The notes below the pieces were generated by a model. It was not told the origin of the DNA. It saw only the letters and a program-made list of their open reading frames with translations, and ran no database searches. This document shows, piece after piece, positions 5,641 through 57,078 of a stretch of DNA of 64,000 nucleotides (position 1 is the first letter of the stretch; every line of letters starts with the position of its first letter). The DNA lies in sequence record OR906198.1, one strand, 5' to 3'. The position numbers were made by a program, and so were the translations under genes. The DNA is from Escherichia phage BP32.

Positions 5641-7445
5641 TATGCAATCCTTATCCAACGGTATACAGTAATAGACGGTTGAATATTACTAATATTAGCA
5701 GGAGGAGTATGTGAAGAGTTTGTTGTTGCGTAATCTTCACGGTATTTTGTATATATAGGACCAGTTTCATCTGGGTCATATTGGCAACCTCCAATAATAA
5801 CTGATCCGTTTTCGTCTTCAATTAAAACTCTTTCATCGGTTTTAGTCGCAGGAAGATTTGCGTTTTCAAGCGTTACTGATGTTGTTCCAACTGTTCCACC
5901 GGCAGTATGTGAAGGATTTCCGCTAGAATCTAAATCATTATTGTTTAAAGCAAAGTTTGGATCCGTAACATCATCATTCCATCCTACTAAAACTTGTCCT
6001 TTACCAAATAATTTCCATGAACCAAATCCCATATAAGTCACCGGATTATTTGGATTTATAGCATTTTCATAAATTGAACCAACAGGATAAATGCTGTCGA
6101 AAATAGATGATATTGAATTATACATTCTAGTATAAGAATCAACTTTTTCAACATTTGGCCAACCGATTTTATCAAAATCTGTTAAGGCTACATCACCAGT
6201 AACTTCGGTAGATGATCCTTTGCTAACATAACGGTCATCCGTTAATTCAATAATGTCATCTTTTTCTAAAAGAGTTCCTAAATCATTATTGAACCACGTT
6301 ATAACGATTATATCACCTGATTCAAATTTTCTATCAAATAAAAGACTGGTAGGTTTTCCATCTTCATATTCTATAGAATAATCTGTGTTTGATTCTTTCC
6401 ATTCACCACCAAGAGATATACAACCTTCTCGCGTATCTGAACTAGCGCCTTCACACAAAAACAGAGGATATCCAGCGGTTCCAGCCTGCTGCTGTAAAAT
6501 TCCATTAAAACGAACCTCAAGAGAATTAGGATTAATGGGTTCACCAGGAATTAATCCAAATGCAGAAAATGGAATTGATTTCATCGCCGATAAATCAGTA
6601 ACATAAATGCTTCCTTCTAAAGAAGTCTTTGATGTTAGTTTTGAATCTAGTACTTTTATTTGGCGTCTTGTATATGAACTTCTCCATTGTGATACACCAT
6701 CCATAAATGTTTCAATTTGAACGGTGTCACCAATATTACAAGGCTGTCTTAATCGAATATTAAATCCATCAAGAGGAACTAATTCGCCTTCATTTTCGCC
6801 CGGAGAGCCAAAGTCACTATTTTCGCTAAATACATCACCGTAATACAATTCGTTACCACGATGTTTTACTCTGATGTTATTGACATTATAACTAGTTCCA
6901 TTGAAAACATCTAAAAAGTCTGTTTGCCCTTGAACTTCGACTAAAAATTCTTTGCGAGCTACATTACTAATATCTGAACTAATAATTTTGTCAATTTGTT
7001 TATTTTTGACATATTCCCAACGTCCTGGAGCGCAATAAACGAGCTCTAAATCACTAAATTGAATATTAATTTCAACTGACGATGACGACCCTTTAATTGT
7101 ATCTCCGGAAGCAGCTACTAAAGTAACTGGATTGATGTTCCATGTAGCGAATACATCCCTGGCTCTAATTACCTTGTTGTAATCATTGACAGTTCCTTTA
7201 GGAAGTTGTAGAGTTACTCTTCCAGAAGAGGTATTAATAGCGTATGATTTTCCCCATTCTGCCGTTAGTGTTTGACCAGATGAAGCATCATAAGTTTTCC
7301 AGGCACCGGCTGAATATGGAACATCTCCATCACCAAGTTCATAATAAAGCTCATCAAAGTTTTCATTTATTTTTATACCACCTTTACGCAGGTAGTCACC
7401 GGTACCATCATCAACAACATTACCGATATTAATATTTTGTTTCAT
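5640..7445 (-). CDS. 10: gp10 baseplate wedge
   Basis: 601-aa ORF, T4 gp10 length and position. Confidence 0.9.
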
Positions 7446-14751: not shown

Positions 14752-15309
14752 TTATTTCCTCTCATACACGTAGCTTCTTAATTTATTAGCCCAACGACTC
14801 CAATTTCCAACTATAGTTTTTGTGTAATTTTTAACAAGGGTTTTTCTTATTGGAGCTGGAGGATCGGTTGGTTCAGTAGTATCAGAAGATGACCTAGAAT
14901 TACTGCCAGAACCTCCAGATTCACTTTGTTCTTGGTAGTCATATATTAATGTTACTTCGTAAGTGAATGTCTTCTGGAGGTTTTGAGGAGCTTTCCATAG
15001 ATATAACTGAGTATTAGAATCAGTTGGAAGGTCTTCCCATGAAGCAGCAGTTTTAAATTCATTATCTAAACGATATTTCAATGCGTCATTTCCAAATCCA
15101 AATACAGATTCATACGTTCCATATAAACGATTTTCTTCTACTAAAACCCCAGGAGTTTCTTCGTAACTAGTTATATTTATAGATACTAACGTTTCACCCG
15201 TTTCTAATTGAGCGGTAAAGGTGACGTCGATAGAAGAACCTTCCATGGATTCTCCTAAATCAGCGCTCATTGGAAGTATATTAGCCAATGTCAATCCTCG
15301 ATCCATCAA
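14752..15309 (-). CDS. 5.1: gp5.1-like protein
   Basis: 185-aa ORF immediately downstream of gene 5; assignment by position only. Confidence 0.6.
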
Positions 15310-21023: not shown

Positions 21024-21045
21024 GTTGATGAGGTAGTGATACTAT
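21017..21045 (+). promoter_or_regulatory. T4-type early promoter
   Basis: -35 TTTACA (21017-22), 17-bp spacer, -10 TACTAT (21040-45). Confidence 0.65.
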
Positions 21046-21075
21046 TATCTCATCAAAATTAATTAGGAAAATAAA

Positions 21076-21333
21076 ATGAAAACTTTCAAAGAGTTTGCTA
21101 CAAAAACTACTATCACTGAATCTTCTCACGGTATGGAAGTAAAGCTTGGAATGGCTTTAGCTGAAGCTGAGCGTCTTTTCTCTCGTATTAAAGAACTTGC
21201 TGCTGCAGTCGATCCTTCATCTTTTAAAGGAGACCAAACTAAAGTTAAAGCGCTTTTAGCATTATGCTCTGATGCAGGCGAAATCGCTAAGAACGGTTCT
21301 AAGATGAAGAAACGATTAGAAGATTTAAAATAA
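21076..21333 (+). CDS. internal-protein-like ORF at ipI locus
   Basis: 85 aa; N-terminus MKTFKEFATKTTITE resembles the capsid-targeting leader of T4 internal proteins with an I-x-E prohead-protease site; located after 57B. Confidence 0.6.
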   Translation: MKTFKEFATKTTITESSHGMEVKLGMALAEAERLFSRIKELAAAVDPSSFKGDQTKVKALLALCSDAGEIAKNGSKMKKRLEDLK

Positions 21334-21353: not shown

Positions 21354-21375
21354 AGGGTTTTAGTTGTGATACTAT
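21347..21375 (+). promoter_or_regulatory. T4-type early promoter
   Basis: -35 TTTACA (21347-52), 17-bp spacer, -10 TACTAT (21370-75). Confidence 0.65.
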
Positions 21376-21403
21376 TACCCTATCAACTACTGAGGAGAAT
21401 AAA

Positions 21404-21589
21404 ATGAAACGTTGTGAATTAATTCGAAATGTTGCTATTGCAATTTCTGCTTCTGCTTTTAGTTTTTCAATGTTTGTTGGATTTATATGCGGATTATTGA
21501 CTACAGCAGAAAATGTGTTTTCACTTGTAGTAGCATTTTTAATTGGTTTAATCGCTATTGTTATGGATAAAATTTCTAAAGGTGAATAA
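21404..21589 (+). CDS. small hydrophobic (membrane) protein
   Basis: 61-aa ORF behind GAGGAGAAT RBS; two predicted TM stretches. Confidence 0.55.
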   Translation: MKRCELIRNVAIAISASAFSFSMFVGFICGLLTTAENVFSLVVAFLIGLIAIVMDKISKGE

Positions 21590-23015: not shown

Positions 23016-23102
23016 GCGAGAATGGTCAAATTGGTAAAGGCACAGCACTTAAAATGCTGCGGAATGATTTCCTTGTGGGTTCGAGTCCCACTTCTCGCAC
23101 CA
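23016..23102 (+). tRNA. tRNA-Leu (anticodon UAA)
   Basis: 7-bp acceptor GCGAGAA/TTCTCGC, anticodon loop cuUAAaa, long variable arm, T-arm GGTTCGAGTCC, encoded CCA. Confidence 0.85.
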
Positions 23103-23107
23103 AATTT

Positions 23108-23181
<74 letters not shown>

Positions 23182-23191
23182 ATTTAATTTA

Positions 23192-23265
23192 CTCCGTGTA
23201 GCTCAGTTTGGTAGAGCGCCTGATTTGGGATCAGGAGGTCCAAGGTTCAAATCCTTGTATGGAGA
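23192..23265 (+). tRNA. tRNA-Pro (anticodon UGG), no encoded CCA
   Basis: anticodon loop uuUGGga, T-arm AAGGTTCAAATCCTT; 3' end lacks CCA; 2-nt spacer to tRNA-Ser. Confidence 0.8.
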
Positions 23266-23267
23266 CT

Positions 23268-23354
23268 GGAGGCGTGGCAGAGTGGTTTAATGCACCGGTC
23301 TTGAAAACCGGCAGTCGCTCCGGCGACTCATAGGTTCAAATCCTATCGCCTCCG
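23268..23354 (+). tRNA. tRNA-Ser (anticodon UGA), no encoded CCA
   Basis: acceptor GGAGGCG/CGCCTCC, anticodon loop cuUGAaa, long variable arm, no CCA. Confidence 0.8.
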
Positions 23355-23361
23355 TAATTTC

Positions 23362-23437
23362 GCTGATTTAGCTCAGTAGGTAGAGCAACTCACTTGTAAT
23401 GAGAAGGTCGGCGGTTCGATTCCGTCAATCAGCACCA
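23362..23437 (+). tRNA. tRNA-Thr (anticodon UGU)
   Basis: acceptor GCTGATT/AATCAGC, anticodon loop cuUGUaa, T-arm GGTTCGATTCC, encoded CCA. Confidence 0.85.
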
Positions 23438-23438
23438 A

Positions 23439-23515
23439 GGCCCTGTAGCTCAATGGTTAGCAGCAGTCCCCTCATAAGGGAAAGGTTACCAGTTCAAATC
23501 TGGTCTGGGTCACCA
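23439..23515 (+). tRNA. tRNA-Ile (anticodon CAU; Met alternative)
   Basis: anticodon loop cuCAUaa, T-arm CAGTTCAAATCTG, encoded CCA; one U-U mismatch in acceptor stem. Confidence 0.7.
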
Positions 23516-23524
23516 AATTAATTA

Positions 23525-23611
23525 GGGGAGTTATCCCGTAGAGGTAGCGGTGTGGACTGTAAATCCATTGTCATTGCGACTCGGGTGGTTCGACTCCACC
23601 ACTCCCCACCA
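23525..23611 (+). tRNA. tRNA-Tyr (anticodon GUA)
   Basis: acceptor GGGGAGT/ACTCCCC, anticodon loop ACTGTAAAT as in bacterial tRNA-Tyr, long variable arm, encoded CCA. Confidence 0.8.
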
Positions 23612-23657
23612 ATTTATGACTCGTCGTGAGACGCTCAGTTCTTTATTAGGGACTGAT

Positions 23658-24323
23658 ATGCATTTTTATCTTTATAAAATAACAAATAAAATTAATAATA
23701 AAATTTATATTGGTGTGCATTCTACCGAAAATTTAGATGATGGATATATGGGTTCTGGTAAATTATTAAAAAGAGCCCAAGATAAGTATGGTATAGAAAA
23801 TTTTTCTAAAGAAATATTAGAGTATTTTGATGATAAAGAATCTATGCTTGAAGCCGAGAAAAATATTGTCACAGAAGAGTTTTTAAATAGACCAGATGTG
23901 TATAATTTAAAACTTGGCGGTGAAGGTGGATGGGACCATATAAATATTCCTGGGATGCTAAACCAGAAGAAAGATGCTAGCTTAAAAGGAGCTAAATCGT
24001 TTAAATCACGTTTTGAAAATGATATTTTACTTCAAGAAAAATATCGTAAAATTGGTTCAAATGTATTTAAACGTTTGTGGTCAACTCCTGAATACAAGGA
24101 AAAATTTTTAAATAATAGCAGATTTTTAAATAAGCATCATACTCCTGAAACTATTAATAAAATGAAAGAAATTCACGCTAAAAATAATCATCAGAAAGGA
24201 GAAAAGAATTCCCAATTTGGTATGATGTGGATTCATTCATTAGATGAAAAAGTTTCTAAACGTATTAAGAAAACTGACCCAATTCCAGAAGGATGGTTTA
24301 AAGGTCGAAAAATGAAATTTTAA
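23658..24323 (+). CDS. segB: GIY-YIG homing endonuclease SegB
   Basis: 221 aa from ATG 23658 (ORF track start 23550 would overlap tRNA-Tyr); GIY-YIG motif YLYKITNKINNKIYIGVHS; embedded in tRNA cluster. Confidence 0.8.
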   Translation: MHFYLYKITNKINNKIYIGVHSTENLDDGYMGSGKLLKRAQDKYGIENFSKEILEYFDDKESMLEAEKNIVTEEFLNRPDVYNLKLGGEGGWDHINIPGMLNQKKDASLKGAKSFKSRFENDILLQEKYRKIGSNVFKRLWSTPEYKEKFLNNSRFLNKHHTPETINKMKEIHAKNNHQKGEKNSQFGMMWIHSLDEKVSKRIKKTDPIPEGWFKGRKMKF

Positions 24324-24326
24324 TTA

Positions 24327-24402
24327 CGGGGCATAGCTCAGAAGGAAGAGCAAGGACCTTCTAAGTCCTAGGTCGTAGGTTCGATCCCTACTGCCTCGAC
24401 CA
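24327..24402 (+). tRNA. tRNA-Arg (anticodon UCU)
   Basis: acceptor CGGGGCA/TGCCTCG, anticodon loop cuUCUaa, T-arm GTAGGTTCGATCCCTAC, encoded CCA. Confidence 0.85.
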
Positions 24403-24418: not shown

Positions 24419-24769
24419 ATGAAAGGTAATGTTTATTTAGTAGTTCATGATTTAACATTCTATTTTAATCACAATGATACTGTTATTTCTGAACGTGTAA
24501 TTAATTTACTTTATCAGCATGCAGATTATGTTTATGTCGAAAACGAATACGGTCATTGGCAATTTCTCAAAAATCGTTCATTTGGTTTAGATGGTTACGA
24601 ATATTTTGAACGTAAAGACCTTTTAGATAAAATTCCGTTATCTACACAATATCAAAATCATAAGTCTTTATATAAATGCCGTCCAATTCGAAATGCTGAA
24701 TCTGCGTATGAAGCAATTGATTTATGGCGTAAACGCCGTGAACAGATTGATGCATTAAAAGAATATTAA
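24419..24769 (+). CDS. hypothetical protein
   Basis: 116-aa ORF with GAGGAAAA RBS directly after tRNA-Arg. Confidence 0.6.
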   Translation: MKGNVYLVVHDLTFYFNHNDTVISERVINLLYQHADYVYVENEYGHWQFLKNRSFGLDGYEYFERKDLLDKIPLSTQYQNHKSLYKCRPIRNAESAYEAIDLWRKRREQIDALKEY

Positions 24770-25107
24770 GAAGCCGGGTCGCTACCGGTAAGTCGTCGGA
24801 CTGATGTTCCCTGGGTAAGGACTGGCATTAACAAATCTTTACGATCTGTTAATGTCCCCTTACATCACAGCAGAAACGGCGCACCGAATTATCGATTCGA
24901 GGAAATATCTTTGCCGTAAGCCGAGTAGCGTTTTTGACGGAACGTTCGGATATGGTCGAGATATGGCCTTTTAAAATATTGAGTAGCGTCAACTGCTTAA
25001 TAACCGGGTTCGAATCCCGGCGTTTCGTACAAACACTTGCCTTAGCAGGTGGAACCCCGACAAGGTTGCCGCAAGGCTTAGCCCCAGCCGAAAGGTTGGG
25101 GCTTTTT
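24770..25107 (+). ncRNA. structured non-coding region; candidate stable small RNA(s) (T4 rnaC/rnaD-like position)
   Basis: about 340 nt, GC-richer than surroundings, no credible ORF; tRNA-like T-arm CCGGGTTCGAATCCCGG at 25004-25020; ends in GNRA-loop terminator. Confidence 0.35.
25081..25107 (+). terminator. intrinsic terminator
   Basis: GCCCCAGCC-GAAA-GGTTGGGGC stem-loop followed by TTTTT. Confidence 0.6.
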
Positions 25108-25241
25108 GATATCTAGGCCTTTCTGGACCTCTCTAGGCATCATTTAGTTTATACCCTTTATAATATATTATCCTATCCTTTAATTGCCCATCCCTGCCCT
25201 AGAATTCCCTAAAACTTTTTAAAAATTTTTTCACAAAACTG

Positions 25242-25270
25242 TTTACACCCTTGTCATTCCATGGTACTAT
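25242..25270 (+). promoter_or_regulatory. T4-type early promoter
   Basis: -35 TTTACA, 17-bp spacer, -10 TACTAT; shares identical 21-nt GGTACTATACAACTATCAACT with promoters at 40499 and 41938. Confidence 0.65.
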
Positions 25271-25312
25271 ACAACTATCAACTACTGATACAAAAACAAC
25301 TTGGAGAATGAA

Positions 25313-25576
25313 ATGGATAATTACGGCGAACTGTTCAACTTCTTTATGAAATGCGTTTCAGAAGATTTCGGTCGTACAGTGAATGATATTAAAGTTATCG
25401 GTCCTGATCATCCGATGTTTGAAACTTACGCAGTAATGGGTAATGAAGATGGTCAGTGGTATACTGTAAAGGTTGTGATTAACATGTTCACTGCTGAAGG
25501 TTATGTTAAACTGTCTTCTAAAGTTTACCATGATAACGACGAAATCGCAGAAGAATATTTTAATAATATGAAATAA
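25313..25576 (+). CDS. hypothetical early protein
   Basis: ORF track starts at TTG 25301; ATG 25313 behind GGAGA RBS gives 87 aa. Confidence 0.6.
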   Translation: MDNYGELFNFFMKCVSEDFGRTVNDIKVIGPDHPMFETYAVMGNEDGQWYTVKVVINMFTAEGYVKLSSKVYHDNDEIAEEYFNNMK

Positions 25577-25577
25577 G

Positions 25578-25612
25578 TTTACATAGGCTCATGATTGAGA
25601 TATTATGAGCCT
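25578..25612 (+). promoter_or_regulatory. T4-type early promoter with overlapping hairpin (PeSL-like)
   Basis: -35 TTTACA (25578-83), 17-bp spacer, -10 TATTAT (25601-06); 8-bp inverted repeat AGGCTCAT/ATGAGCCT (25585-92, 25605-12). Confidence 0.55.
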
Positions 25613-25631
25613 ATAATTTGAGGAAACTGTT

Positions 25632-26162
25632 ATGTCTCTTTATACCGAACTGAATGAAACTTCCGAAAAATCTTTTGATGGTATCTTATCAATAATGCAA
25701 AAGCAGGTATTAGAACAGCTTAGTGAAGCCGCAAGCAACGGACATAAGGCTTGTCGAATCCCAAGCCCACATCGTCGCCTGTATGAACGCCCTCTTATTA
25801 ATTGGCTAGAAAGCGAAGGTCTTACGGTTAAGATTTGTCCTGCCAAATTTGATATCCCACGTATTCTTAATATTTACTGGGATAAACCGATTGAGAAACC
25901 GATTGAGAAAAGTGACCCTTGGGTTGTTAATGTAAAAACATATGATAATGGATGCTCACTTGAGGTGTCTGCTGTAATTAAAGGCACTCACGGTGAAAAA
26001 TCGTGGGGTTGGCCTGGTAAAGATAAAGAAATCGTGTTAAGTGTAAAAGCTACTAGTATTAGTACTCCTATAGCTAAAAGCATTATCGCCGCCGCTGTTG
26101 AAGAAGCTGAACGAATTTGTAAAATTAAAAATAGTTTACATCTCTTAAATAGCATGATATAA
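25632..26162 (+). CDS. hypothetical protein
   Basis: 176-aa ORF; contains 12-bp tandem duplication (PIEKPIEK) at 25887-25910. Confidence 0.65.
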   Translation: MSLYTELNETSEKSFDGILSIMQKQVLEQLSEAASNGHKACRIPSPHRRLYERPLINWLESEGLTVKICPAKFDIPRILNIYWDKPIEKPIEKSDPWVVNVKTYDNGCSLEVSAVIKGTHGEKSWGWPGKDKEIVLSVKATSISTPIAKSIIAAAVEEAERICKIKNSLHLLNSMI

Positions 26163-26205
26163 TTCTTCCACAGATTTTAATTTTTAATCAACCTAAGGAA
26201 ATACT

Positions 26206-26799
26206 ATGAACACACTGAAGAAAATTGTTGAGTTTATTCGCACTAAACTTGGTTCTGCTATGGCTAAAAATCTATCTGTTGAAGAACAGTATACTGCTGC
26301 AGCAGCAAAACTACTTGATAAAATTAAAGATCTAAAAACTGCTTCTGTTAAATCTATTAATGAAGAAAAACGTATTCGTGAACTTGTTATCGAAAAGAAT
26401 CGACAGGCCGAATCAAAAGAGCGTGAAATTCGTAAACTTCTTTCCGAAGGTCAAGATGTAACAATGCATGCTAAACTCGGTTTGCTATATCGTCGAACAG
26501 CTGAGCAGTTGACTACTAAAGCTGATGGTTATGCTGAAATGCGAATTGAAATCGCCAAGAAAGTAGTTGAGTTAGATGATGCTCGTCAAGAACTTGCGGT
26601 TAAATTGGAATATATCCGTGAAACTCGTGCGGCAAATGCCCTTGGAATTAGTACTGCCGATGATGTAGTTGAAATCGCAGCACTGACTAAAGTTGATATT
26701 GAAGATACTCTTGCTCGAGTTGAAACCTTTAACGGTAATATTTCTGGGGTTGAAACTACCTCTGCCGATGTTCAGGAATACATTAATTCTCTGAAATAA
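26206..26799 (+). CDS. coiled-coil protein (possible PspA/IM30-like)
   Basis: 197 aa, amphipathic N-terminus then heptad-rich helices; similarity to PspA is impression only. Confidence 0.6.
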
Positions 26800-28148: not shown

Positions 28149-28633
28149 TTTTAAAAACTCGCTGGTATGATTTAGATGATGGGGATGATGGCATTTCAGT
28201 TGATAGAGTTGACTGGAATGGCTGTTCCGAAGATATGAAAAATTTGTTGATTAGGGAGTTTAGAATGGGATATCAACCAGTTAAGCCATCTACTGCAACA
28301 GATGATAAATTCGTGTGTATTTATAATGGTCGCGCTAAGTTAACGAACGCTGATTGGTTCACAGATAAGATTATGATTCTGTGGTATATTATTAGTCTTC
28401 CTGTGACATCATTCGTATTTTACTTTTTTATAAAAAATCCAATGGACAGAATAGGAGATTGGATTCTTTTAACCATACTTGTTAATATTTTTACAGCAGC
28501 AATATTATCTGGGATATGGTACACGTTCATTGAAATGCCATGGCGGCTACGCAGACAACAAAAGATTTTTGATGAAAAGAAATATACTCAAAATTTAAAT
28601 AACTTTATCACTGAATGCAGGAAATTAAAATGA
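28145..28633 (+). CDS. small membrane protein, paralog family member C
   Basis: 162 aa; two TM helices; C-terminal NFITECRKLK; ATGA overlaps at both ends. Confidence 0.6.
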   Translation: MILKTRWYDLDDGDDGISVDRVDWNGCSEDMKNLLIREFRMGYQPVKPSTATDDKFVCIYNGRAKLTNADWFTDKIMILWYIISLPVTSFVFYFFIKNPMDRIGDWILLTILVNIFTAAILSGIWYTFIEMPWRLRRQQKIFDEKKYTQNLNNFITECRKLK

Positions 28634-29070
28634 AAACATTATCGGCTGGTATTATCTTTATGACAGAAGATAAAGATTTATTTATGGGTCGGGTTACTGG
28701 TTCTCGTAAGCCTGGAATGATGGCACATCGCTGGGATATCCCAAAGGGCCGCGTAGAAAATTCTGATTTAAACGCACTAGATGCAGCACGAAGAGAATGT
28801 TTAGAAGAGACTGGTTTTAGCAATTATAATCCAGACCTTCTAGAAGACCTAGGTGTATTTAAATATTCTAGTAATAAAGACTTACAGTTATTTTATTATA
28901 CGATTCCAGTAGAGCATGAGATGTTTAGAAATTGCCATTGCGAGTCTTATTTTGAAAATAAAGATGGCGTTATGATTCCAGAGATGGATGCTTTTGCTCT
29001 TATTCCTCGTACTCAGTGGCAATATGTGATGGGTCCTTCACTTTACCGAATAATGAACAGCCTCTTTTAA
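28630..29070 (+). CDS. nudE: Nudix hydrolase NudE (e.1)
   Basis: Nudix box GRVENSDLNALDAARRECLEETGF; ORF track start 28615, but ATG 28630 has AGGAAA RBS and ATGA coupling (146 aa). Confidence 0.8.
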   Translation: MKTLSAGIIFMTEDKDLFMGRVTGSRKPGMMAHRWDIPKGRVENSDLNALDAARRECLEETGFSNYNPDLLEDLGVFKYSSNKDLQLFYYTIPVEHEMFRNCHCESYFENKDGVMIPEMDAFALIPRTQWQYVMGPSLYRIMNSLF

Positions 29071-36876: not shown

Positions 36877-36899
36877 AGTCTCCTTCGGGAGACTTTTTT
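36877..36899 (+). terminator. intrinsic terminator
   Basis: AGTCTCC-TTCG-GGAGACT stem-loop followed by TTTTTT. Confidence 0.7.
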
Positions 36900-36910
36900 C
36901 ATTTTACCGG

Positions 36911-36939
36911 TTTACTTTCCATTTGAGCTGTGATACTAT
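36911..36939 (+). promoter_or_regulatory. T4-type early promoter
   Basis: -35 TTTACT, 17-bp spacer, -10 TACTAT. Confidence 0.65.
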
Positions 36940-36967
36940 ACAACCATCGGATAAAGAGGAGAACATC

Positions 36968-37719: not shown

Positions 37720-37722
37720 TGG

Positions 37723-37751
37723 TTTACAAGTTGGCAAGGTTATGGTATAGT
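37723..37751 (+). promoter_or_regulatory. T4-type early promoter
   Basis: -35 TTTACA, 17-bp spacer, -10 TATAGT with TGG extension. Confidence 0.6.
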
Positions 37752-37779
37752 AATCTTGTCAACTGTCAAGGAGAAGAGA

Positions 37780-38447: not shown

Positions 38448-38969
38448 ATGTTTATTTCAAGTGGAAGTGGTTTAATTCGTGTTGAATTTAAAAATGACAT
38501 CTTCCTTATTCAAGGAGATGATATTATTAAAATGAGTTATGACGAAATCAAGAAAATTTGTCACGCTCTTGAAAGTCATGGAAAGGAAAATGCTACTATC
38601 GATATAGGTGATTTATGGGTAACGCTTTATGAAGTATCCGAAGGATTTAACATTGAAGATGAAAATAACATTTTAGCTATTGATAAAAGGACCGATTTGT
38701 TTGATGTGTTAAAAGTTTATGAACAGTCAAACGGTGGAAGAAAAGCCGTATTGATTTATCAAAAACCGCATTCATGTGGAACTGCTTCAATCATTTCAAA
38801 TATTGAAGATGAAACTGATACCTATATGTGTGTTTTGAAAGCTGGTGGTGACCGTCATCCGGATTTTATTTCTATTCGTCAAAACAATGGAGAAATTTCA
38901 TTATCAAAATCAGAAGCTGAAGCTATGATTAAGTATTTAACAACTGTTACACCTTCAATGAAAGGATAA
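38448..38969 (+). CDS. hypothetical protein, paralog of 37887 product
   Basis: 173 aa behind GAGGAAAT RBS; shares C-terminal pattern with upstream ORF. Confidence 0.65.
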   Translation: MFISSGSGLIRVEFKNDIFLIQGDDIIKMSYDEIKKICHALESHGKENATIDIGDLWVTLYEVSEGFNIEDENNILAIDKRTDLFDVLKVYEQSNGGRKAVLIYQKPHSCGTASIISNIEDETDTYMCVLKAGGDRHPDFISIRQNNGEISLSKSEAEAMIKYLTTVTPSMKG

Positions 38970-38971
38970 TT

Positions 38972-39418
38972 ATGATTATTAATGAAAACTCTTGGCACGT
39001 TCGTATGCATGATTTCTTTTACTGGCAGCGTCCGAATTCTTTGTGTAAATATTTCTGGAAAATGGCGTGGACGTTCTTAGTTATCGGTGTTATTTGCACA
39101 TCGGGGCTATTAGGTAGTTGGGTGGTAGGACAAGCTATTTTAAGTCAATTTGGTGTTACAGGATTCTGGCTTCTACATGCAGGCGGAACCGTATTTGGTG
39201 TACTGATATTTGCTACGATTGTCATTATTGCAGTAGGTATAGCATATATTGTAGCTAAGATTTCAGGTTTATGGGAAGGAGTCAGGTATGATAGAGCGTG
39301 GAAGCGTCAACAAGACGAAGAAAACGGTATTGAACATCCTAAGAGTGTAATCGTTGAATACCTTAAAGCTAGTAAATCTAAAATCTGCCCTATGATAGAA
39401 TTTAAGGATGTTAAATGA
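38972..39418 (+). CDS. small membrane protein
   Basis: 148 aa with 2-3 predicted TM helices; ATGA-coupled to next gene. Confidence 0.65.
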   Translation: MIINENSWHVRMHDFFYWQRPNSLCKYFWKMAWTFLVIGVICTSGLLGSWVVGQAILSQFGVTGFWLLHAGGTVFGVLIFATIVIIAVGIAYIVAKISGLWEGVRYDRAWKRQQDEENGIEHPKSVIVEYLKASKSKICPMIEFKDVK

Positions 39419-40425: not shown

Positions 40426-40428
40426 TAA

Positions 40429-40452
40429 GGGAGCCTTCGGGCTCCCTTTTTT
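40429..40452 (+). terminator. intrinsic terminator
   Basis: GGGAGCC-TTCG-GGCTCCC stem-loop followed by TTTTTT. Confidence 0.7.
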
Positions 40453-40477
40453 ATTTCAAAAATTTTTCATAAAACTG

Positions 40478-40506
40478 TTTACAAGCATAAAGCTTTATGG
40501 TACTAT
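40478..40506 (+). promoter_or_regulatory. T4-type early promoter
   Basis: -35 TTTACA, 17-bp spacer, -10 TACTAT; conserved GGTACTATACAACTATCAACT leader. Confidence 0.7.
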
Positions 40507-40540
40507 ACAACTATCAACTGATACGGATTTGGAGAATAAA

Positions 40541-41509
40541 ATGAAAACTGTAACTATCAATAAAGGTATCTACTTCGGTAAAGAAATCTCTGGAACTTTT
40601 GAGCTCTTAGGCGAATGGTTCCCAGATAATGCTCCGGTAGATGCACAAGGAGATGGTAAAGTTTTTGTTGAAATTGACGGTAAACGTCGCGGTGTTTGGG
40701 TTTACAAATCAGATATTTCATATGATGGTGTAAAAGTTGAAGAAGTTAAAGAATCATATGAAGATATGAAAACCCGCATTAATAAAAGATTTAATGTTAT
40801 GGGAATGATGACGAATGGTATTATTAATGGAAATATTCGTTCATTAATTATCTCTGGCGCAGCAGGTATTGGTAAAACGTATTCTTTAGATAAAGCTTTA
40901 AATAAAGCAAATGATATTGGATACATTGAATATAAAAGCATTAATGGTAAAATCTCTGGTATTGGTCTTTATGAGCAGCTTTGGAATAATCGTGAAGAGA
41001 ACTCTGTCCTTTTGATTGATGATGTGGATGTTTTCTCTGATATGGACATTCTTAATCTTCTGAAAGCTGCTCTGGACACTGGAGAGACCCGTAAAGTCTG
41101 CTGGAGCACTGCATCTTCTTACTTAGAAGAAAAAGGCATTGACCGTGAGTTTGAATTTAAAGGAACGATTGTTTTTATCACAAACGTTGATATTGACCGC
41201 GAATTAGACCGTGGTACTAAACTTGCCCCACACTTACAAGCATTAGTGTCCCGCTCAGTTTATTTAGATTTGGGTGTTCACACTAATGAAGAAATTATGG
41301 TCAGGGTTGAAGATGTTATTCTTTCAACCGACATGATGCAAAAGCGCGGTCTTTCTGATGAAGAAACTTATAAAGCATTATCATGGATGAAAGTTAATGT
41401 TAATCGTTTACGCAATGTTTCACTGCGTACTGCTCTTTATCTTGCTGACTTTATTATGACCGACAAAAACGGTTGGGAAGAAATTGCTGAGGTTACTCTT
41501 CTGAAATAA
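40541..41509 (+). CDS. P-loop ATPase (AAA-like)
   Basis: 322 aa from ATG 40541 behind GGAGAAT RBS; Walker A ISGAAGIGKTYS, Walker B VLLIDDVD, sensor-1-like FITN. Confidence 0.7.
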   Translation: MKTVTINKGIYFGKEISGTFELLGEWFPDNAPVDAQGDGKVFVEIDGKRRGVWVYKSDISYDGVKVEEVKESYEDMKTRINKRFNVMGMMTNGIINGNIRSLIISGAAGIGKTYSLDKALNKANDIGYIEYKSINGKISGIGLYEQLWNNREENSVLLIDDVDVFSDMDILNLLKAALDTGETRKVCWSTASSYLEEKGIDREFEFKGTIVFITNVDIDRELDRGTKLAPHLQALVSRSVYLDLGVHTNEEIMVRVEDVILSTDMMQKRGLSDEETYKALSWMKVNVNRLRNVSLRTALYLADFIMTDKNGWEEIAEVTLLK

Positions 41510-41610
41510 TTCATAAGAGGACTTCTATGACAAAAAGGCAGTTCAGAAATAGATTATATGGACTGCCATTAAAAAGATGACTAGAATTAAACTGGTGAAT
41601 GGAGGTAGTG

Positions 41611-41913
41611 ATGTTATACTCAAAGGCTCGTGAAATTTACGAAACTAAAATTAAAGAAGCAGTATTTCAATTCGCAACGACAATGCGATGGACAAATGAC
41701 TGGGAGTATTCAAAAAATCATAAGAAGCCCATGGTGACAAGAAAGGCTCATATGTTAGTGTTAATAGACCGTGAGCAGATTAAAGCCCGAGAAGCCCTCC
41801 AGAATCATAAAAAGGCTGCCTTTGAATGGTTTATGGATAATACTGCTCCTGAGACTAAGAAAGCGGTAAGTGCATGGTTCAGTGGAAAAAATTGTGAAAG
41901 AAGTTTCTTTTAG
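41611..41913 (+). CDS. hypothetical protein
   Basis: 100 aa from ATG 41611 behind GGAGG RBS (ORF track start 41599). Confidence 0.5.
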   Translation: MLYSKAREIYETKIKEAVFQFATTMRWTNDWEYSKNHKKPMVTRKAHMLVLIDREQIKAREALQNHKKAAFEWFMDNTAPETKKAVSAWFSGKNCERSFF

Positions 41914-41916
41914 TTG

Positions 41917-41945
41917 TTTACAAGACTGTTCCTCTGTGGTACTAT
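41917..41945 (+). promoter_or_regulatory. T4-type early promoter
   Basis: -35 TTTACA, 17-bp spacer, -10 TACTAT; same conserved leader. Confidence 0.7.
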
Positions 41946-41973
41946 ACAACTATCAACTACGGAGGAACAGAAA

Positions 41974-49554: not shown

Positions 49555-51368
49555 CAATTGAAAAAGAAATTGAAGGATTAATTCATAAAACTAATAAAGA
49601 CCTTTTGAACGAGAATGCTAATAAAGATTCTCGTGTTTTTCCAACTCAACGGGACCTTATGGCTGGTATTGTGTCTAAACACATTGCCAAAAATATGGTC
49701 CCGTCTTTTATTATGAAAGCGCATGAAAGCGGAATTATTCATTTCCATGATATTGATTATTCCCCTGCTCTTCCATTTACTAATTGCTGTTTAGTAGATT
49801 TAAAAGGAATGCTTGAGAACGGATTTAAGCTCGGTAATGCACAGATTGAAACTCCTAAATCAATCGGCGTTGCTACTGCAATTATGGCGCAAATTACTGC
49901 ACAGGTTGCTTCCCATCAATATGGTGGAACGACTTTTGCGAATGTAGACAAAGTACTTTCTCCTTATGTTAAACGCACCTATGCAAAACATATTGAAGAT
50001 GCAGAAAAATGGCAAATCGCTGATGCGCTGAATTACGCCCAGTCTAAAACAGAAAAAGACGTATACGATGCATTCCAAGCTTATGAATATGAAGTAAATA
50101 CTCTCTTTAGTTCAAACGGACAAACGCCCTTTGTAACAATTACATTTGGCACGGGAACTGACTGGACTGAACGAATGATTCAGAAAGCAATTCTGAAAAA
50201 TCGTATCAAAGGTCTTGGTCGTGATGGGATAACTCCTATTTTCCCTAAGCTTGTTATGTTCGTTGAAGAGGGTGTTAATCTTTATAAAGACGATCCGAAC
50301 TATGATATTAAGCAGCTTGCTCTAGAGTGTGCAAGTAAAAGAATGTATCCTGACATCATTTCGGCTAAGAACAATAAAGCTATCACAGGTTCATCTATTC
50401 CTGTTTCTCCAATGGGTTGCCGCAGTTTCTTAAGTGTATGGAAAGATTCGACTGGTAATGAAATTCTTGATGGACGTAATAATCTTGGCGTTGTAACACT
50501 GAATCTTCCTCGTATTGCGTTAGATTCTTATATTGGAACACAGTTCAATGAACAGAAATTTGCCGAATTGTTCAATGAACGAATGGATTTATGTTTTGAA
50601 GCTTTGATGTGTAGAATCAGTTCCTTAAAAGGAGTTAAAGCTACTGTTGCTCCTATTCTTTACCAAGAAGGTGCATTCGGGGTTCGTCTTAAACCTGATG
50701 ACGATATAATTGAGTTATTTAAAAACGGTAGAAGTTCAGTGTCCCTAGGATACATTGGTATTCACGAATTGAATATTCTTGTCGGTCGTGATATTGGACA
50801 AGAAATTTTAACTAAAATGAATACTCATCTTAAACAATGGACTGAAAGAACCGGATTTGCTTTTAGTTTATATTCTACTCCTGCTGAAAACCTGTGCTAT
50901 CGCTTCTGTAAACTTGATACCGAAAAATATGGAAGTGTAAAAGATGTTACCGATAAAGGCTGGTACACTAACAGTTTCCACGTTTCAGTAGAAGAAAATA
51001 TTACTCCGTTTGAAAAGATTTCTCGCGAAGCACCGTATCATTTCATTGCGACAGGTGGTCACATTTCTTATGTTGAACTTCCTGATATGAAAAATAACCT
51101 AAAAGGTCTTGAGGCTGTATGGGATTATGCTGCACAACATTTAGATTATTTTGGTGTTAATATGCCAGTAGATAAATGTTTTACATGCGGAAGTACCCAT
51201 GAAATGACTCCTACTGAAAACGGATTTGTTTGTTCTATTTGTGGAGAAACTGATCCTAAAAAGATGAACACAATAAGAAGAACATGTGGCTATTTGGGAA
51301 ATCCGAATGAACGCGGATTTAATCTTGGCAAAAATAAAGAAATCATGCATAGGGTTAAACACCAATGA
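49551..51368 (+). CDS. nrdD: anaerobic ribonucleoside-triphosphate reductase NrdD
   Basis: 605 aa uninterrupted; C-terminal zinc ribbon and glycyl-radical motif RRTCGYLG. Confidence 0.9.
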   Translation: MTIEKEIEGLIHKTNKDLLNENANKDSRVFPTQRDLMAGIVSKHIAKNMVPSFIMKAHESGIIHFHDIDYSPALPFTNCCLVDLKGMLENGFKLGNAQIETPKSIGVATAIMAQITAQVASHQYGGTTFANVDKVLSPYVKRTYAKHIEDAEKWQIADALNYAQSKTEKDVYDAFQAYEYEVNTLFSSNGQTPFVTITFGTGTDWTERMIQKAILKNRIKGLGRDGITPIFPKLVMFVEEGVNLYKDDPNYDIKQLALECASKRMYPDIISAKNNKAITGSSIPVSPMGCRSFLSVWKDSTGNEILDGRNNLGVVTLNLPRIALDSYIGTQFNEQKFAELFNERMDLCFEALMCRISSLKGVKATVAPILYQEGAFGVRLKPDDDIIELFKNGRSSVSLGYIGIHELNILVGRDIGQEILTKMNTHLKQWTERTGFAFSLYSTPAENLCYRFCKLDTEKYGSVKDVTDKGWYTNSFHVSVEENITPFEKISREAPYHFIATGGHISYVELPDMKNNLKGLEAVWDYAAQHLDYFGVNMPVDKCFTCGSTHEMTPTENGFVCSICGETDPKKMNTIRRTCGYLGNPNERGFNLGKNKEIMHRVKHQ

Positions 51369-51835
51369 ATTATGATAGATTTTATCCTTGCGATTTTGTG
51401 AATGGCCCTGGATGCAGGGTCGTTCTTTTCGTTACAGGTTGTTTGCATAAATGCGAAGGGTGTTATAATAAATCAACGTGGAATGCTAGAAATGGCGTTC
51501 CATTCACTGGTGAAACACTGGAACAATTAATTGAATGTTTGAATAATGATTATATAGAAGGATTAACTATAACTGGAGGAGACCCTCTTTATCCTGATAA
51601 TCGAGATGTTGTTCATTGCATTGTTCAAACAGTAAAAAATCTTTATCCAAATAAAAGCATTTGGTTGTGGACAGGATATAAATTTGAAGATATTAAACAA
51701 CTAGAAATGCTTAAATATGTTGATGTTATTATTGATGGGAAGTATGAGAAAAATCTTCCGACCAAAAAGCTGTGGCGAGGTTCAGATAATCAGCGACTTT
51801 GGTCAAATACCGATGGGGTGTGGAAACATGATTAA
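51365..51835 (+). CDS. nrdG: anaerobic NTP reductase activase NrdG (radical SAM)
   Basis: 156 aa; CxxxCxxC cluster GCLHKCEGCYN; ATGA-coupled to nrdD. Confidence 0.9.
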   Translation: MNYDRFYPCDFVNGPGCRVVLFVTGCLHKCEGCYNKSTWNARNGVPFTGETLEQLIECLNNDYIEGLTITGGDPLYPDNRDVVHCIVQTVKNLYPNKSIWLWTGYKFEDIKQLEMLKYVDVIIDGKYEKNLPTKKLWRGSDNQRLWSNTDGVWKHD

Positions 51836-55851: not shown

Positions 55852-55875
55852 AAACCAAAACAATGAGGATATTAA

Positions 55876-57078
55876 ATGAAAGTATGCATTTTTATGGCTC
55901 GAGGTCTTGAAGGTTGTGGTGTAACTAAATTTTCTCTTGAGCAACGTGATTGGTTTATTAAAAATGGTCATGAAGTAACTTTGGTTTATGCTAAAGATAA
56001 ATCATTTACTCGTAATTGCGCGCATGATTATAAGTCATTTTCAATTCCAGTTTTATTGGCAAAAGAATACGATAAAACACTTAAGCTGGTAAATGATTGT
56101 GATATTCTAATTATCAATTCAGTTCCTGCTACTTCAGTAGAAGAAGACACTATTAATAACTATAAAAAAATTATTGATAACATTAAACCTTCGGTTCGTG
56201 TTGTAGTTTATCAGCATGACCATTCTTCTCTTTCTTTGCGCCGAAATTTGGGATTAGAAGAAACTGTTCGTCGAGCTGATGTTATTTTTAGCCATTCTGA
56301 TAATGGTGATTTTAATAAAGTTCTGATGAAAGAATGGTATCCGGAAACTGTTTCTCTGTTTGATGATATTGAAGAAGCACCGACCGTATATAACTTTCAG
56401 CCTCCTATGGATATTGCGAAGGTTCGATCAACCTACTGGAAAGATGTTTCTGAAATTAACATGAATATCAACCGTTGGATTGGTCGTACTACTACATGGA
56501 AAGGCTTTTATCAGATGTTTGATTTTCACGAAAAACATCTTAAACCTGCAGGACTAAGTACTATTATGGAAGGTCTGGAACGTTCTCCAGCTTTCATTCC
56601 TATTAAAGAAAAAGGAATTCCATACGAGTATTATCGTCTTCATCAAGTAGACCAAATTAAAATTGCTCCTAATTTGCCGACGCAAATTCTCGACCGTTAT
56701 GTAAATAGCGAAATGCTTGAACGCATGAGTAAATCCGGATTTGGTTATCAGCTGAGTAAGTTGGACAAAAAATATCTACAACGTTCTTTAGAATATACTC
56801 ATCTCGAGCTTGGTGCATGTGGAACAATTCCGGTATTTTGGAAATCTACGGGCGAAAATTTAAAATTCCGTGTTGATAACACTCCGTTAATTTCTCATGA
56901 TAGCGGTATCGTTTGGTTTGATGAAAATGACATGGAATCAACATTTGAACGTATTAAAGAACTGTCATCTGACCGAGCTCTTTATGACCGCGAACGTGAA
57001 AAAGCTTATGAATTTTTGTATCAGCATCAAGATTCAAGCTTCTGCTTTAAAGAACAGTTTGACATTATTACAAAATAA
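55876..57078 (+). CDS. agt: DNA alpha-glucosyltransferase
   Basis: 400 aa, MKVCIFMARGLEGCGVTKFSLEQRDWFIKNGHEVTLVYAKDK..., matches T4 alpha-gt. Confidence 0.9.
   Translation: MKVCIFMARGLEGCGVTKFSLEQRDWFIKNGHEVTLVYAKDKSFTRNCAHDYKSFSIPVLLAKEYDKTLKLVNDCDILIINSVPATSVEEDTINNYKKIIDNIKPSVRVVVYQHDHSSLSLRRNLGLEETVRRADVIFSHSDNGDFNKVLMKEWYPETVSLFDDIEEAPTVYNFQPPMDIAKVRSTYWKDVSEINMNINRWIGRTTTWKGFYQMFDFHEKHLKPAGLSTIMEGLERSPAFIPIKEKGIPYEYYRLHQVDQIKIAPNLPTQILDRYVNSEMLERMSKSGFGYQLSKLDKKYLQRSLEYTHLELGACGTIPVFWKSTGENLKFRVDNTPLISHDSGIVWFDENDMESTFERIKELSSDRALYDREREKAYEFLYQHQDSSFCFKEQFDIITK

Follow-up and report, generated by a model that had tools for sequence, protein, structure and literature searches.

A 22-nt core shared by three early promoters of a T4-like coliphage belongs to a conserved sub-family of T4-type early promoters

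Three sites on the + strand of the DNA stretch analysed here (64,000 nt of Escherichia phage BP32, record OR906198.1; hereafter the window) carry the 21-mer GGTACTATACAACTATCAACT, at positions 25263-25283, 40499-40519 and 41938-41958, and the question arises why promoter-like segments in front of different genes should be identical over much more than a -10 hexamer. The original prediction, which took the sites to be early promoters, proposed either a recent duplication of promoter cassettes or a conserved 5′ leader with its own function. The identity at the three sites is exact; no additional match with up to three mismatches occurs in the window, and the 21-mer was matched 0 times in 100 dinucleotide-preserving shuffles, with none expected by chance. 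Reading and alignment of the regions showed that a T precedes every copy (25262, 40498 and 41937), and the identity therefore covers 22 rather than 21 nt, upholding on re-inspection the claim that conservation extends far past the -10 hexamer. The flanks of the three copies are also alike (74-81% over 62 nt), and an unbiased repeat search placed the 62-nt cassette that holds the motif first in size among the window's dispersed direct-repeat families (family D1).

The window belongs to a Tequatrovirus, the region 24500-26500 matching many T4-like coliphages at identities of up to 97.9%, and is collinear with T4 in reverse orientation. The genes downstream of the three sites are orthologs of T4 e.8, nrdC.10 and nrdC.8:

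25313..25576, + strand: e.8 ortholog CDS, 87 aa (MDNYGELFNFF…), with 95% nucleotide identity to RB69 e.8
40541..41509, + strand: nrdC.10 ortholog CDS, 322 aa
41974..42501, + strand: nrdC.8 ortholog CDS, 175 aa

The products of 87 and 175 aa are of the size originally given. No Pfam family was found above the cut-off for the e.8 ortholog and no Pfam match for the nrdC.8 ortholog, and the nrdC.10 ortholog shows weak similarity to AAA/P-loop NTPases, all of it under the Pfam cut-offs. Each promoter lies in the same orientation as the early genes and is followed by a Shine-Dalgarno (SD) sequence and ATG 24-36 nt downstream. The predicted GGAG-containing ribosome-binding site could be located in all three leaders, with GGAG at 25303-25306, 40531-40534 and 41961-41964.

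All three copies have GTTTACA upstream, at 25241, 40477 and 41916, and share the hexamer geometry TTTACA/17/TACTAT with TGG before the -10 (25242-25270 in the e.8 promoter), in agreement with the predicted sigma-70-type early promoters. The distance of 17 bp that had been reported is correct as the spacing of TTTACA to TACTAT, but not for the 21-mer, which begins 15 nt after TTTACA. Promoters cannot be identified here by a generic sigma-70 scan alone, which returned 81 sites where 74.6 were expected. E. coli RNA polymerase starts transcription at a purine about 7 nt past the -10 hexamer, with a pyrimidine preferred before it. Relative to the predicted +1, the 22-mer is made up of the TGn motif (-15 to -13), TACTAT (-12 to -7), an ACAACT discriminator (-6 to -1) and ATCAACT (+1 to +7), and at most 7 nt of the 21-mer would be transcribed, since +1 is placed by the standard 7-nt spacing rule. 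The elements of the three promoters are as follows:

25080..25103, + strand: intrinsic-terminator-like stem-loop, AGCCCCAGCC-GAAA-GGTTGGGGCT then TTTT, about 140 nt upstream of the e.8 promoter
25209..25240, + strand: A/T-rich UP-element region of the e.8 promoter, …TTTAAAAATTTTTTCACAAAACT
25241..25247, + strand: -35 GTTTACA of the e.8 promoter, invariant in all orthologs
25248..25261, + strand: promoter-specific spacer of the e.8 promoter, CCCTTGTCATTCCA
25262..25283, + strand: 22-nt invariant core of the e.8 promoter, identical in T4 and RB69 (TGn 25262-25264; TACTAT 25265-25270; ACAACT 25271-25276; ATCAACT to 25283, with predicted +1 A at 25277)
25277..25312, + strand: predicted unstructured 5′ leader of e.8, with RegB/S1-like GGAGAAUGAAA from 25303
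40427..40448, + strand: intrinsic terminator at nrdC.10, AAGGGAGCC-TTCG-GGCTCCCTT then TTTTATTT
40477..40483, + strand: -35 GTTTACA of the nrdC.10 promoter
40484..40497, + strand: promoter-specific spacer of the nrdC.10 promoter, AGCATAAAGCTTTA, holding the palindrome ATAAAGCTTTAT
40498..40519, + strand: 22-nt invariant core of the nrdC.10 promoter (-10 TACTAT 40501-40506; predicted +1 40513)
40513..40540, + strand: predicted leader of nrdC.10; the RegB/S1 site at 40531-40541 reads GGAGAAUAAAA, a perfect consensus
41916..41922, + strand: -35 GTTTACA of the nrdC.8 promoter
41926..41934, + strand: spacer segment of the nrdC.8 promoter, CTGTTCCTC, complementary to the SD region GAGGAACAG at 41962-41970
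41937..41958, + strand: 22-nt invariant core of the nrdC.8 promoter (-10 TACTAT 41940-41945; predicted +1 41952)

Both e.8 (TTTTTTCACAAAAC) and nrdC.10 (TTTTTCATAAAAC) have an A/T-rich UP element in which an A-tract occupies about -40 to -44, and the e.8 UP region is nearly identical to the upstream blocks of T4 e.8, imm.1, motA and nrdC.10. The T-tract of the nrdC.10 terminator, which is conserved in the orthologs, extends into the UP element of that promoter. The UP region of nrdC.8 retains only A-40, because it sits in upstream coding sequence, within the 3′ end of the ORF at 41599-41913.

A consensus for T4 early promoters was reportedly described by Liebig and Rueger in 1989, Wilkens and Rueger in 1994 and Miller and colleagues in 2003. 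These promoters (Pe) have been reviewed by Hinton (2010; PMC2988021), where they are portrayed as 'uber' promoters (UP/-35/TGn/-10) that share further stretches of consensus. The three window sites are built from the same elements, namely an A-rich UP element, a -35 GTTTAC(A/T) at about -36 to -30 and, 17 (±1) bp away, a TAnnnT -10 with preceding TGn, the latter two being present in every copy. Their TGn/-10 region also fits the early motif TGTG(A/G)TA(C/T)(A/T)AT derived from dRNA-seq of T4 (GEO GSE255091; bioRxiv 10.1101/2024.04.04.588121), a data set in which 90/150 T4 transcription start sites start with A. T4 e.8, nrdC.8, nrdC.10 and imm.1 are classed as early at the RNA and protein level (PMC9697503 supplement). 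The suggested co-regulation of the three downstream genes is thereby supported in the ordinary sense only, as membership of one temporal class. With the same elements, the same genomic positions and the same early class, the window sites show no essential difference from the T4 promoters and are their orthologs. The feature is already known in kind, consisting of orthologs of catalogued T4 early promoters and not of a new leader signal. For annotation purposes, the three sites can be assigned with confidence to known T4 early promoters as their orthologs, and the label of immediate-early genes can be given to e.8, nrdC.10 and nrdC.8.

The identical 22-mer is also found in T4 at the orthologous e.8, nrdC.10 and nrdC.8 sites. 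Across the T4 genome there are six exact copies (imm.1, nrdC.8, nrdC.10, e.8, motA and ndd.6) and about six near copies, differing at 3-5 positions (cef, denV, frd.3, mobD.5, ndd.4 and trna.4), all of them on the minus strand in early-gene orientation, with GTTTAC upstream and SD and ATG downstream. When a 108-nt e.8 cassette was used as query, 3357 places were matched in 549 phage records, typically 6-8 per genome. The three copies first noticed are thus all genuine within the window, but the real family numbers 6-8 copies per genome. The search of other T4-like genomes that had been recommended accordingly located the 21-mer in T4 and at e.8 of RB69, and the cassette in the 549 phage records. 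The multi-copy family of which the 22-mer is the core is long known, consists of very strong early promoters and occurs in practically all T4-like coliphages. One match (H63) was rejected as an e.8 ortholog, being the cef/motB paralog. A degenerate-core scan of viral contigs yielded, among the matches listed (118), seven in promoter context, most being without it. In the literature searched, neither the motif, written out as text, nor a printed leader sequence was found.

A pattern scan, used here in place of a curated list, provided 36 T4 early promoters, of which the consensus over -15..+7 (TGgTAtTATA.aacTATcaAcT) resembles the 22-mer because the sub-family itself largely produces it. The 11 closest members were removed and the 25 other T4 early promoters kept. 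These 25 show only weak preferences after -7 (-3 C/A, -1 T, +1 A, +2 T), and their position-weight matrix gives the 22-mer a probability of approximately 10^-8.3. The histogram of mismatches in T4 is furthermore discontinuous: six copies match the 22-mer exactly, no copy has 1 or 2 mismatches, and all others have at least 3. Within the early promoters, those with the 22-mer form a discrete sub-family. Comparing the six exact T4 copies in pairs gives an identity of 1.00 in both core and -35, 0.67 in the UP region, 0.43 in the leader and 0.36 in the spacer, the last value equalling background. Canonical sigma-70 contacts need no specific bases at -10..-8 or -6..+7. As the contacts are unspecific there and the other 25 promoters show weak preferences, recognition by RNA polymerase alone fails to explain the invariant block.

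The age of the identity was assessed by aligning the orthologous e.8, nrdC.10 and nrdC.8 promoters across 7-9 genomes, namely T4, the window, IMG/VR T4-like contigs, Lutter, Yersinia phage PYps47T, Salmonella phage pSe_SNUABM_01 and RB69. In the Lutter record, the depositor had annotated predicted promoters at the corresponding sites. Variable columns amount to 0/21 in the -35, 7/66 in the core, 13/74 in the leader, 38/136 in the upstream region and 19/42 in the spacer, which is the most variable segment. The core is significantly less variable than the spacer (P = 6e-5), but core and leader do not differ significantly (P = 0.33). From one copy to the next the spacers are unrelated, yet each is maintained in its orthologs. 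The same core occupies the three sites in T4, five IMG/VR T4-like genomes and three divergent Tequatroviruses. RB69, which infects the same host but belongs to the genus Mosigvirus, carries an unaltered 22-mer at e.8, behind a spacer that is almost the same, with zero differences from the window in -60..-30 and -15..+7; its e.8 module is unusually conserved (CDS 95% identical; upstream 130 nt 88.5%).

These data bear directly on the proposal that the cassettes were recently duplicated inside this genome, which the perfect 22-nt identity and the similar flanks would at first favour. The spacers are locus-specific but stable among orthologs, so that the paralogous copies must be old. T4 carries the same three loci plus three more, RB69 carries the e.8 copy, and the spacers of the copies are unrelated. 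Recent duplication is therefore excluded, its probability being negligible in the face of the orthologous conservation. The alignments instead show the signature of purifying selection, with core and -35 varying far less than the spacer, and demonstrate, at the level of sequence comparison, an ancient identity apparently kept by such selection together with occasional conversion or replacement between paralogous cassettes. Very probably, the 22-mer is the invariant core of one T4-type early-promoter sub-family whose ancient identity has been retained by selection and conversion.

The contribution of conversion is visible in the pattern of change. All 7 variable core columns trace to two block events, without scattered point changes: the e.8 core of the Salmonella phage, TGGTACTATATCAATATCAACT, is exactly the variant of the T4 cef promoter, and the nrdC.8 core of RB69 differs at 4 positions, with a spacer altered so as to pair with the new core. 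The e.8 promoter of the Yersinia phage has a spacer of the imm.1 type. In one IMG/VR phage (L017) the whole nrdC.10 promoter has been exchanged for a TATAGTAGTCCTATCAAA-type promoter, and in another (L022) the ndd.4 promoter takes the nrdC.8 form. At the imm.1 and ndd.6 loci, promoter and upstream context are unchanged but the genes that follow differ. RB69 has, moreover, amplified a frozen core of its own, TGTTATAGTAGTCCTATCAAAA, with 4 exact copies and one single-mismatch copy in 40 kb. The amplification of a different core on the same host argues against the 22-mer being a unique polymerase optimum, and for a contribution of cassette spread and homogenisation to the identity.

Could such homogenisation account for the identity by itself? 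The very active homologous recombination of T4 would then homogenise the dispersed cassettes, the -6..+7 block would serve only as one piece of a working promoter, and every lineage would have amplified whichever cassette chanced to spread. The block-wise replacements exactly equal to a paralog, the derivation of 7/7 variable core columns from two block events, the lack of core variants with 1-2 mismatches and the separate core of RB69 are all compatible with this concerted evolution, as are the spacers shared by some T4 paralogs (that of nrdC.10 is also that of frd.3, and that of imm.1 is close to those of ndd.4 and nrdC.8) and the precedent of the PeSL cassettes (PMC2839356). However, the 14-15-nt spacers between the identical blocks stay locus-specific, and conversion tracts would need to have missed them time and again. 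The spacer also varies far more than the -35 and core do. C-TATCAA around the start is common to all sub-families, also across genera, which suggests a common functional constraint at the start. Concerted evolution without such a constraint is thus a possible but rather unlikely explanation, and the combination of selection with occasional conversion is preferred.

The second proposal of the original prediction gives the conserved segment a function as RNA in the 5′ leader, where it would direct RegB cleavage, processing or stability; an effect on translation can be added to these. In favour of such a role, GGAG is found in all three leaders, and many copies share ACTGATAC after the 22-mer. 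RegB/S1 sites in early T4 mRNAs comprise the 11-nt GGAGAAUAAAA, with the consensus GGAGRAYARAA, and require no specific information 5′ of GGAG (Durand et al. 2006; PMC1702504). The nrdC.10 leader fits this consensus perfectly (GGAGAAUAAAA, 11/11) and the e.8 leader nearly so (GGAGAAUGAAA, 10/11), whereas the GGAG context of nrdC.8 (GGAGGAACAGA) fits it poorly. These sites lie 20-26 nt downstream of the 21-mer, which is not part of them, and of the 21 nt only the last 7 or so are predicted to be transcribed. The sequence straight after the 22-mer varies by copy, being ACTGATAC, GATAC, AATAC or ACGGAGG. The three leaders and that of T4 motA, taken from the predicted +1, contain no structure better than shuffles; their minimum free energies range from 0 to -3.4 kcal/mol and their z-scores from -0.28 to +0.79 (e.8: -0.6 kcal/mol, z = +0.67; nrdC.10: -2.6 kcal/mol, z = -0.28). 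An Rfam scan of positions 20000-45000 detected tRNAs only and no family matching the leaders. As RegB/S1 needs only GGAG and A-rich 3′ sequence, and the leaders are unstructured and without an Rfam match, neither a RegB signal nor a processing or stability signal is supported for the 21-mer, and an RNA role of this kind is considered highly improbable. RegB is plausibly relevant to the ribosome-binding sites, with the 21-mer lying outside that signal.

Conservation greater than the canonical requirements of RNA polymerase could also arise if the -15..+7 block additionally binds a phage or host factor, perhaps one involved in early shut-off, or suits the Alt-ADP-ribosylated polymerase, making its promoters a co-regulated subset. 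The regulator gene motA belongs to this subset, and reviews call the mechanism of early-promoter shut-off not understood and state that Alt stimulates only some early promoters, by a determinant that is not known. Arguing against such a role, no candidate protein was found, every 22-mer occurrence in the window and T4 lies within a promoter context, and RB69 uses another core for most of its promoters. A dimeric operator was also considered and rejected: the dyad TATCA-N5-TGATA at +1..+15 has a different spacing in nrdC.10 and is missing from nrdC.8. It thus appears improbable that factor binding or modified polymerase underlies the conservation, and there is equally little likelihood that the -6..+7 block, ACAACTATCAACT, is a cis-element read outside the standard polymerase contacts by a shut-off factor or by the Alt-ADP-ribosylated polymerase. 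Were this the case, motA, imm.1, the ndd cluster, e.8, nrdC.8 and nrdC.10 would constitute a separately controlled immediate-early regulon.

With the identity attributed to selection and conversion within an early-promoter sub-family, a working model can be outlined. Unmodified E. coli sigma-70 RNA polymerase would use the 22-mer promoters right after infection, meeting in order the A/T-rich UP element, the -35 GTTTACA, the 17 bp formed by the locus-specific spacer and TGG, and the 22-mer. The window copies would thereby drive e.8, nrdC.10 and nrdC.8, with imm.1, motA and the ndd cluster added in the whole genome. The -6..+7 block may tune open-complex formation, start-site choice and promoter escape where the UP/-35/TGn/-10 contacts are already near-maximal. 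The downstream GGAG would be a separate element, serving as SD sequence and RegB/S1 site independently of the 21-mer. The strong phage sigma-70 promoters T5 N25 and T7 A1, in which the initial transcribed sequence controls escape, similarly combine near-maximal polymerase contacts with a conserved A-start initial region, and the T7 A1 transcript also begins AUC. By analogy with these promoters, a role for +1..+7 in promoter escape is plausible.

The 22-mer class can be compared with the PeSLs (promoter-early stem-loops), the mobile regulatory cassettes of RB49 and phi1 (Arbiol et al. 2010; PMC2839356). In that paper, promoter elements of the T-even IP locus (Repoila et al. 1994, as cited there) are regarded as analogs, not homologs, of PeSLs. 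Both PeSLs and the 22-mer promoters are early-promoter cassettes that occur in many dispersed copies in variable genome regions, with one cassette standing before different genes. Coupling to a stem-loop or terminator, and recombination between paralogous copies, may be further points in common. The 22-mer copies are likewise dispersed over variable, non-essential regions (nrdC, e, ndd, mot and imm). They differ from PeSLs in that the class is mostly without a stem-loop overlapping the promoter: the terminator is adjacent at nrdC.10, the stem-loop at e.8 lies about 140 nt upstream and nrdC.8 has none, and the class lacks the -10-flanking inverted repeat found in 14/36 other T4 early promoters. 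A second difference concerns synteny breakpoints, which are enriched at cassettes when the whole window serves as null (6/33; P = 2e-4) but not when the null is restricted to intergenic positions, so that the enrichment is indistinguishable from a general intergenic preference; the three window copies sit within syntenic blocks.

The literature read does not spell out that one early-promoter sub-family is identical over -15..+7 when the others are nearly unconstrained after -7, nor that other genera amplified other cores. The findings are of modest interest in that a 13-nt stretch around the start is frozen in one sub-family and almost free in others, and in that different T4-like genera amplified different frozen cores. 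These residual points bear on the spread of promoter cassettes and on early-transcription shut-off.

Two near-members of the sub-family are also found in the window:

21367..21388, + strand: promoter of the trna.4 ortholog, TGATACTATTACCCTATCAACT, a member of family D1 with 63% identity over 62 nt
36931..36952, + strand: promoter of the mobD.5 ortholog, TGATACTATACAACCATCGGAT, preceded by a terminator at 36877-36894

The T4 mobD.5 promoter has 4 mismatches to the 22-mer. The complementarity between spacer and SD region at nrdC.8 has a counterpart in T4, where a 7-bp version is found.

Many other early promoters, outside the class that shares an identical 22-nt core from -15 to +7 (the 22-mer class), carry the -10 hexamer within the loop of an inverted repeat, the arms of which are formed by the spacer and by the sequence directly 3′ of the -10. 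The T4 side of this observation derives from loci L001-L004, and three examples in the window are listed below.

Inverted repeats around the -10 hexamer in the window
21026-21058: arms TGATGAGGTA … TATCTCATCA
25583-25614: arms ATAGGCTC … GAGCCTAT
37722-37775: arms AGTTGGCAAGGTT … AATCTTGTCAACT

Exact complementarity of at least 7 bp flanking the -10 was found in 14/36 T4 early promoters, against approximately one expected (shuffle maximum 4, n = 200), and T4 promoters of the 22-mer class mostly lack such a repeat. Among strict orthologs, the arm substitutions comprised six G·U-type, two compensatory, one A·C and six other changes, with a single, probably replaced promoter being the source of five of the six other changes as well as the A·C change. 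This substitution pattern, which comes from small numbers, hints at pairing in the sense strand (RNA) of read-through transcripts. The stem-loops of the PeSLs, the mobile promoter-early stem-loop cassettes of RB49/phi1 (PMC2839356), are analogous to these repeats of the T4-type early promoters.

Phage RB69 (NC_004928, 40000-80000) has amplified an early-promoter core of its own, TGTTATAGTAGTCCTATCAAAA, which occurs within 40 kb in four exact copies and one near copy. In these promoters, ATAGGACTA at the 3′ side of the spacer generates a 9-bp inverted repeat around the -10. In the T4-like IMG/VR locus L017, the nrdC.10 promoter is replaced by a promoter of this RB69-core type. In the cef promoter of T4 (6570-6640), the spacer ATCAGTAGTTGAT and the conserved start/leader segment ATCAACTACTGAT are exact reverse complements of each other, giving a 13-bp inverted repeat which encloses a 22-mer-like core.

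The spacer of the nrdC.8 promoter (CTGTTCCTC, window 41926-41934) is complementary to the nrdC.8 Shine-Dalgarno region (GAGGAACAG, 41962-41970), and spacer-to-Shine-Dalgarno complementarity also occurs at the T4 promoters of ndd.4, denV, regB and the 30.8 region. Judged from this complementarity, pairing with the spacer could sequester the nrdC.8 ribosome-binding site in transcripts reading through from upstream. Those begun at the nrdC.8 promoter itself lack the 5′ arm of the pairing. T4 gene e is a known case of the same logic.

Two genes that differ from T4 are each flanked on both sides by early-promoter cassettes, dispersed early-promoter repeats.

Cassette-flanked genes differing from T4
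21110-21328: internal-protein-locus gene
25632-26162 (differing region 25634-26189): 176-aa ORF at the T4 e.7 position

Their position fits cassette-mediated gene replacement, but statistically it cannot be told apart from a general tendency of breakpoints to fall between genes. Synteny gaps, set against the annotation of T4, show that segC/5.3, the I-TevII-containing intron of nrdD, mobC and mobB are absent from the window, and that approximately 950 nt of different sequence occupies the mobD position.

Synteny gaps relative to T4 (segC/5.3, nrdD intron, mobC, mobB, mobD)
~14755-14775
38466-39414
50086-50089
~51365-51385
55860-55885

A repeated ribosome-binding-site block, (A/T)GGA(G/A)AATAAAATGAAA, is common to several early genes and joins the RegB/S1 consensus to the start codon and to AAA as the second codon.

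Copies of the ribosome-binding-site block (repeat families D4 and D6)
21065-21086
21393-21414
28619-28640
40530-40551

Eight tRNA genes are clustered at 23016-24399, directly upstream of the e.8 promoter region, where the tRNA gene cluster of T4 is likewise located.
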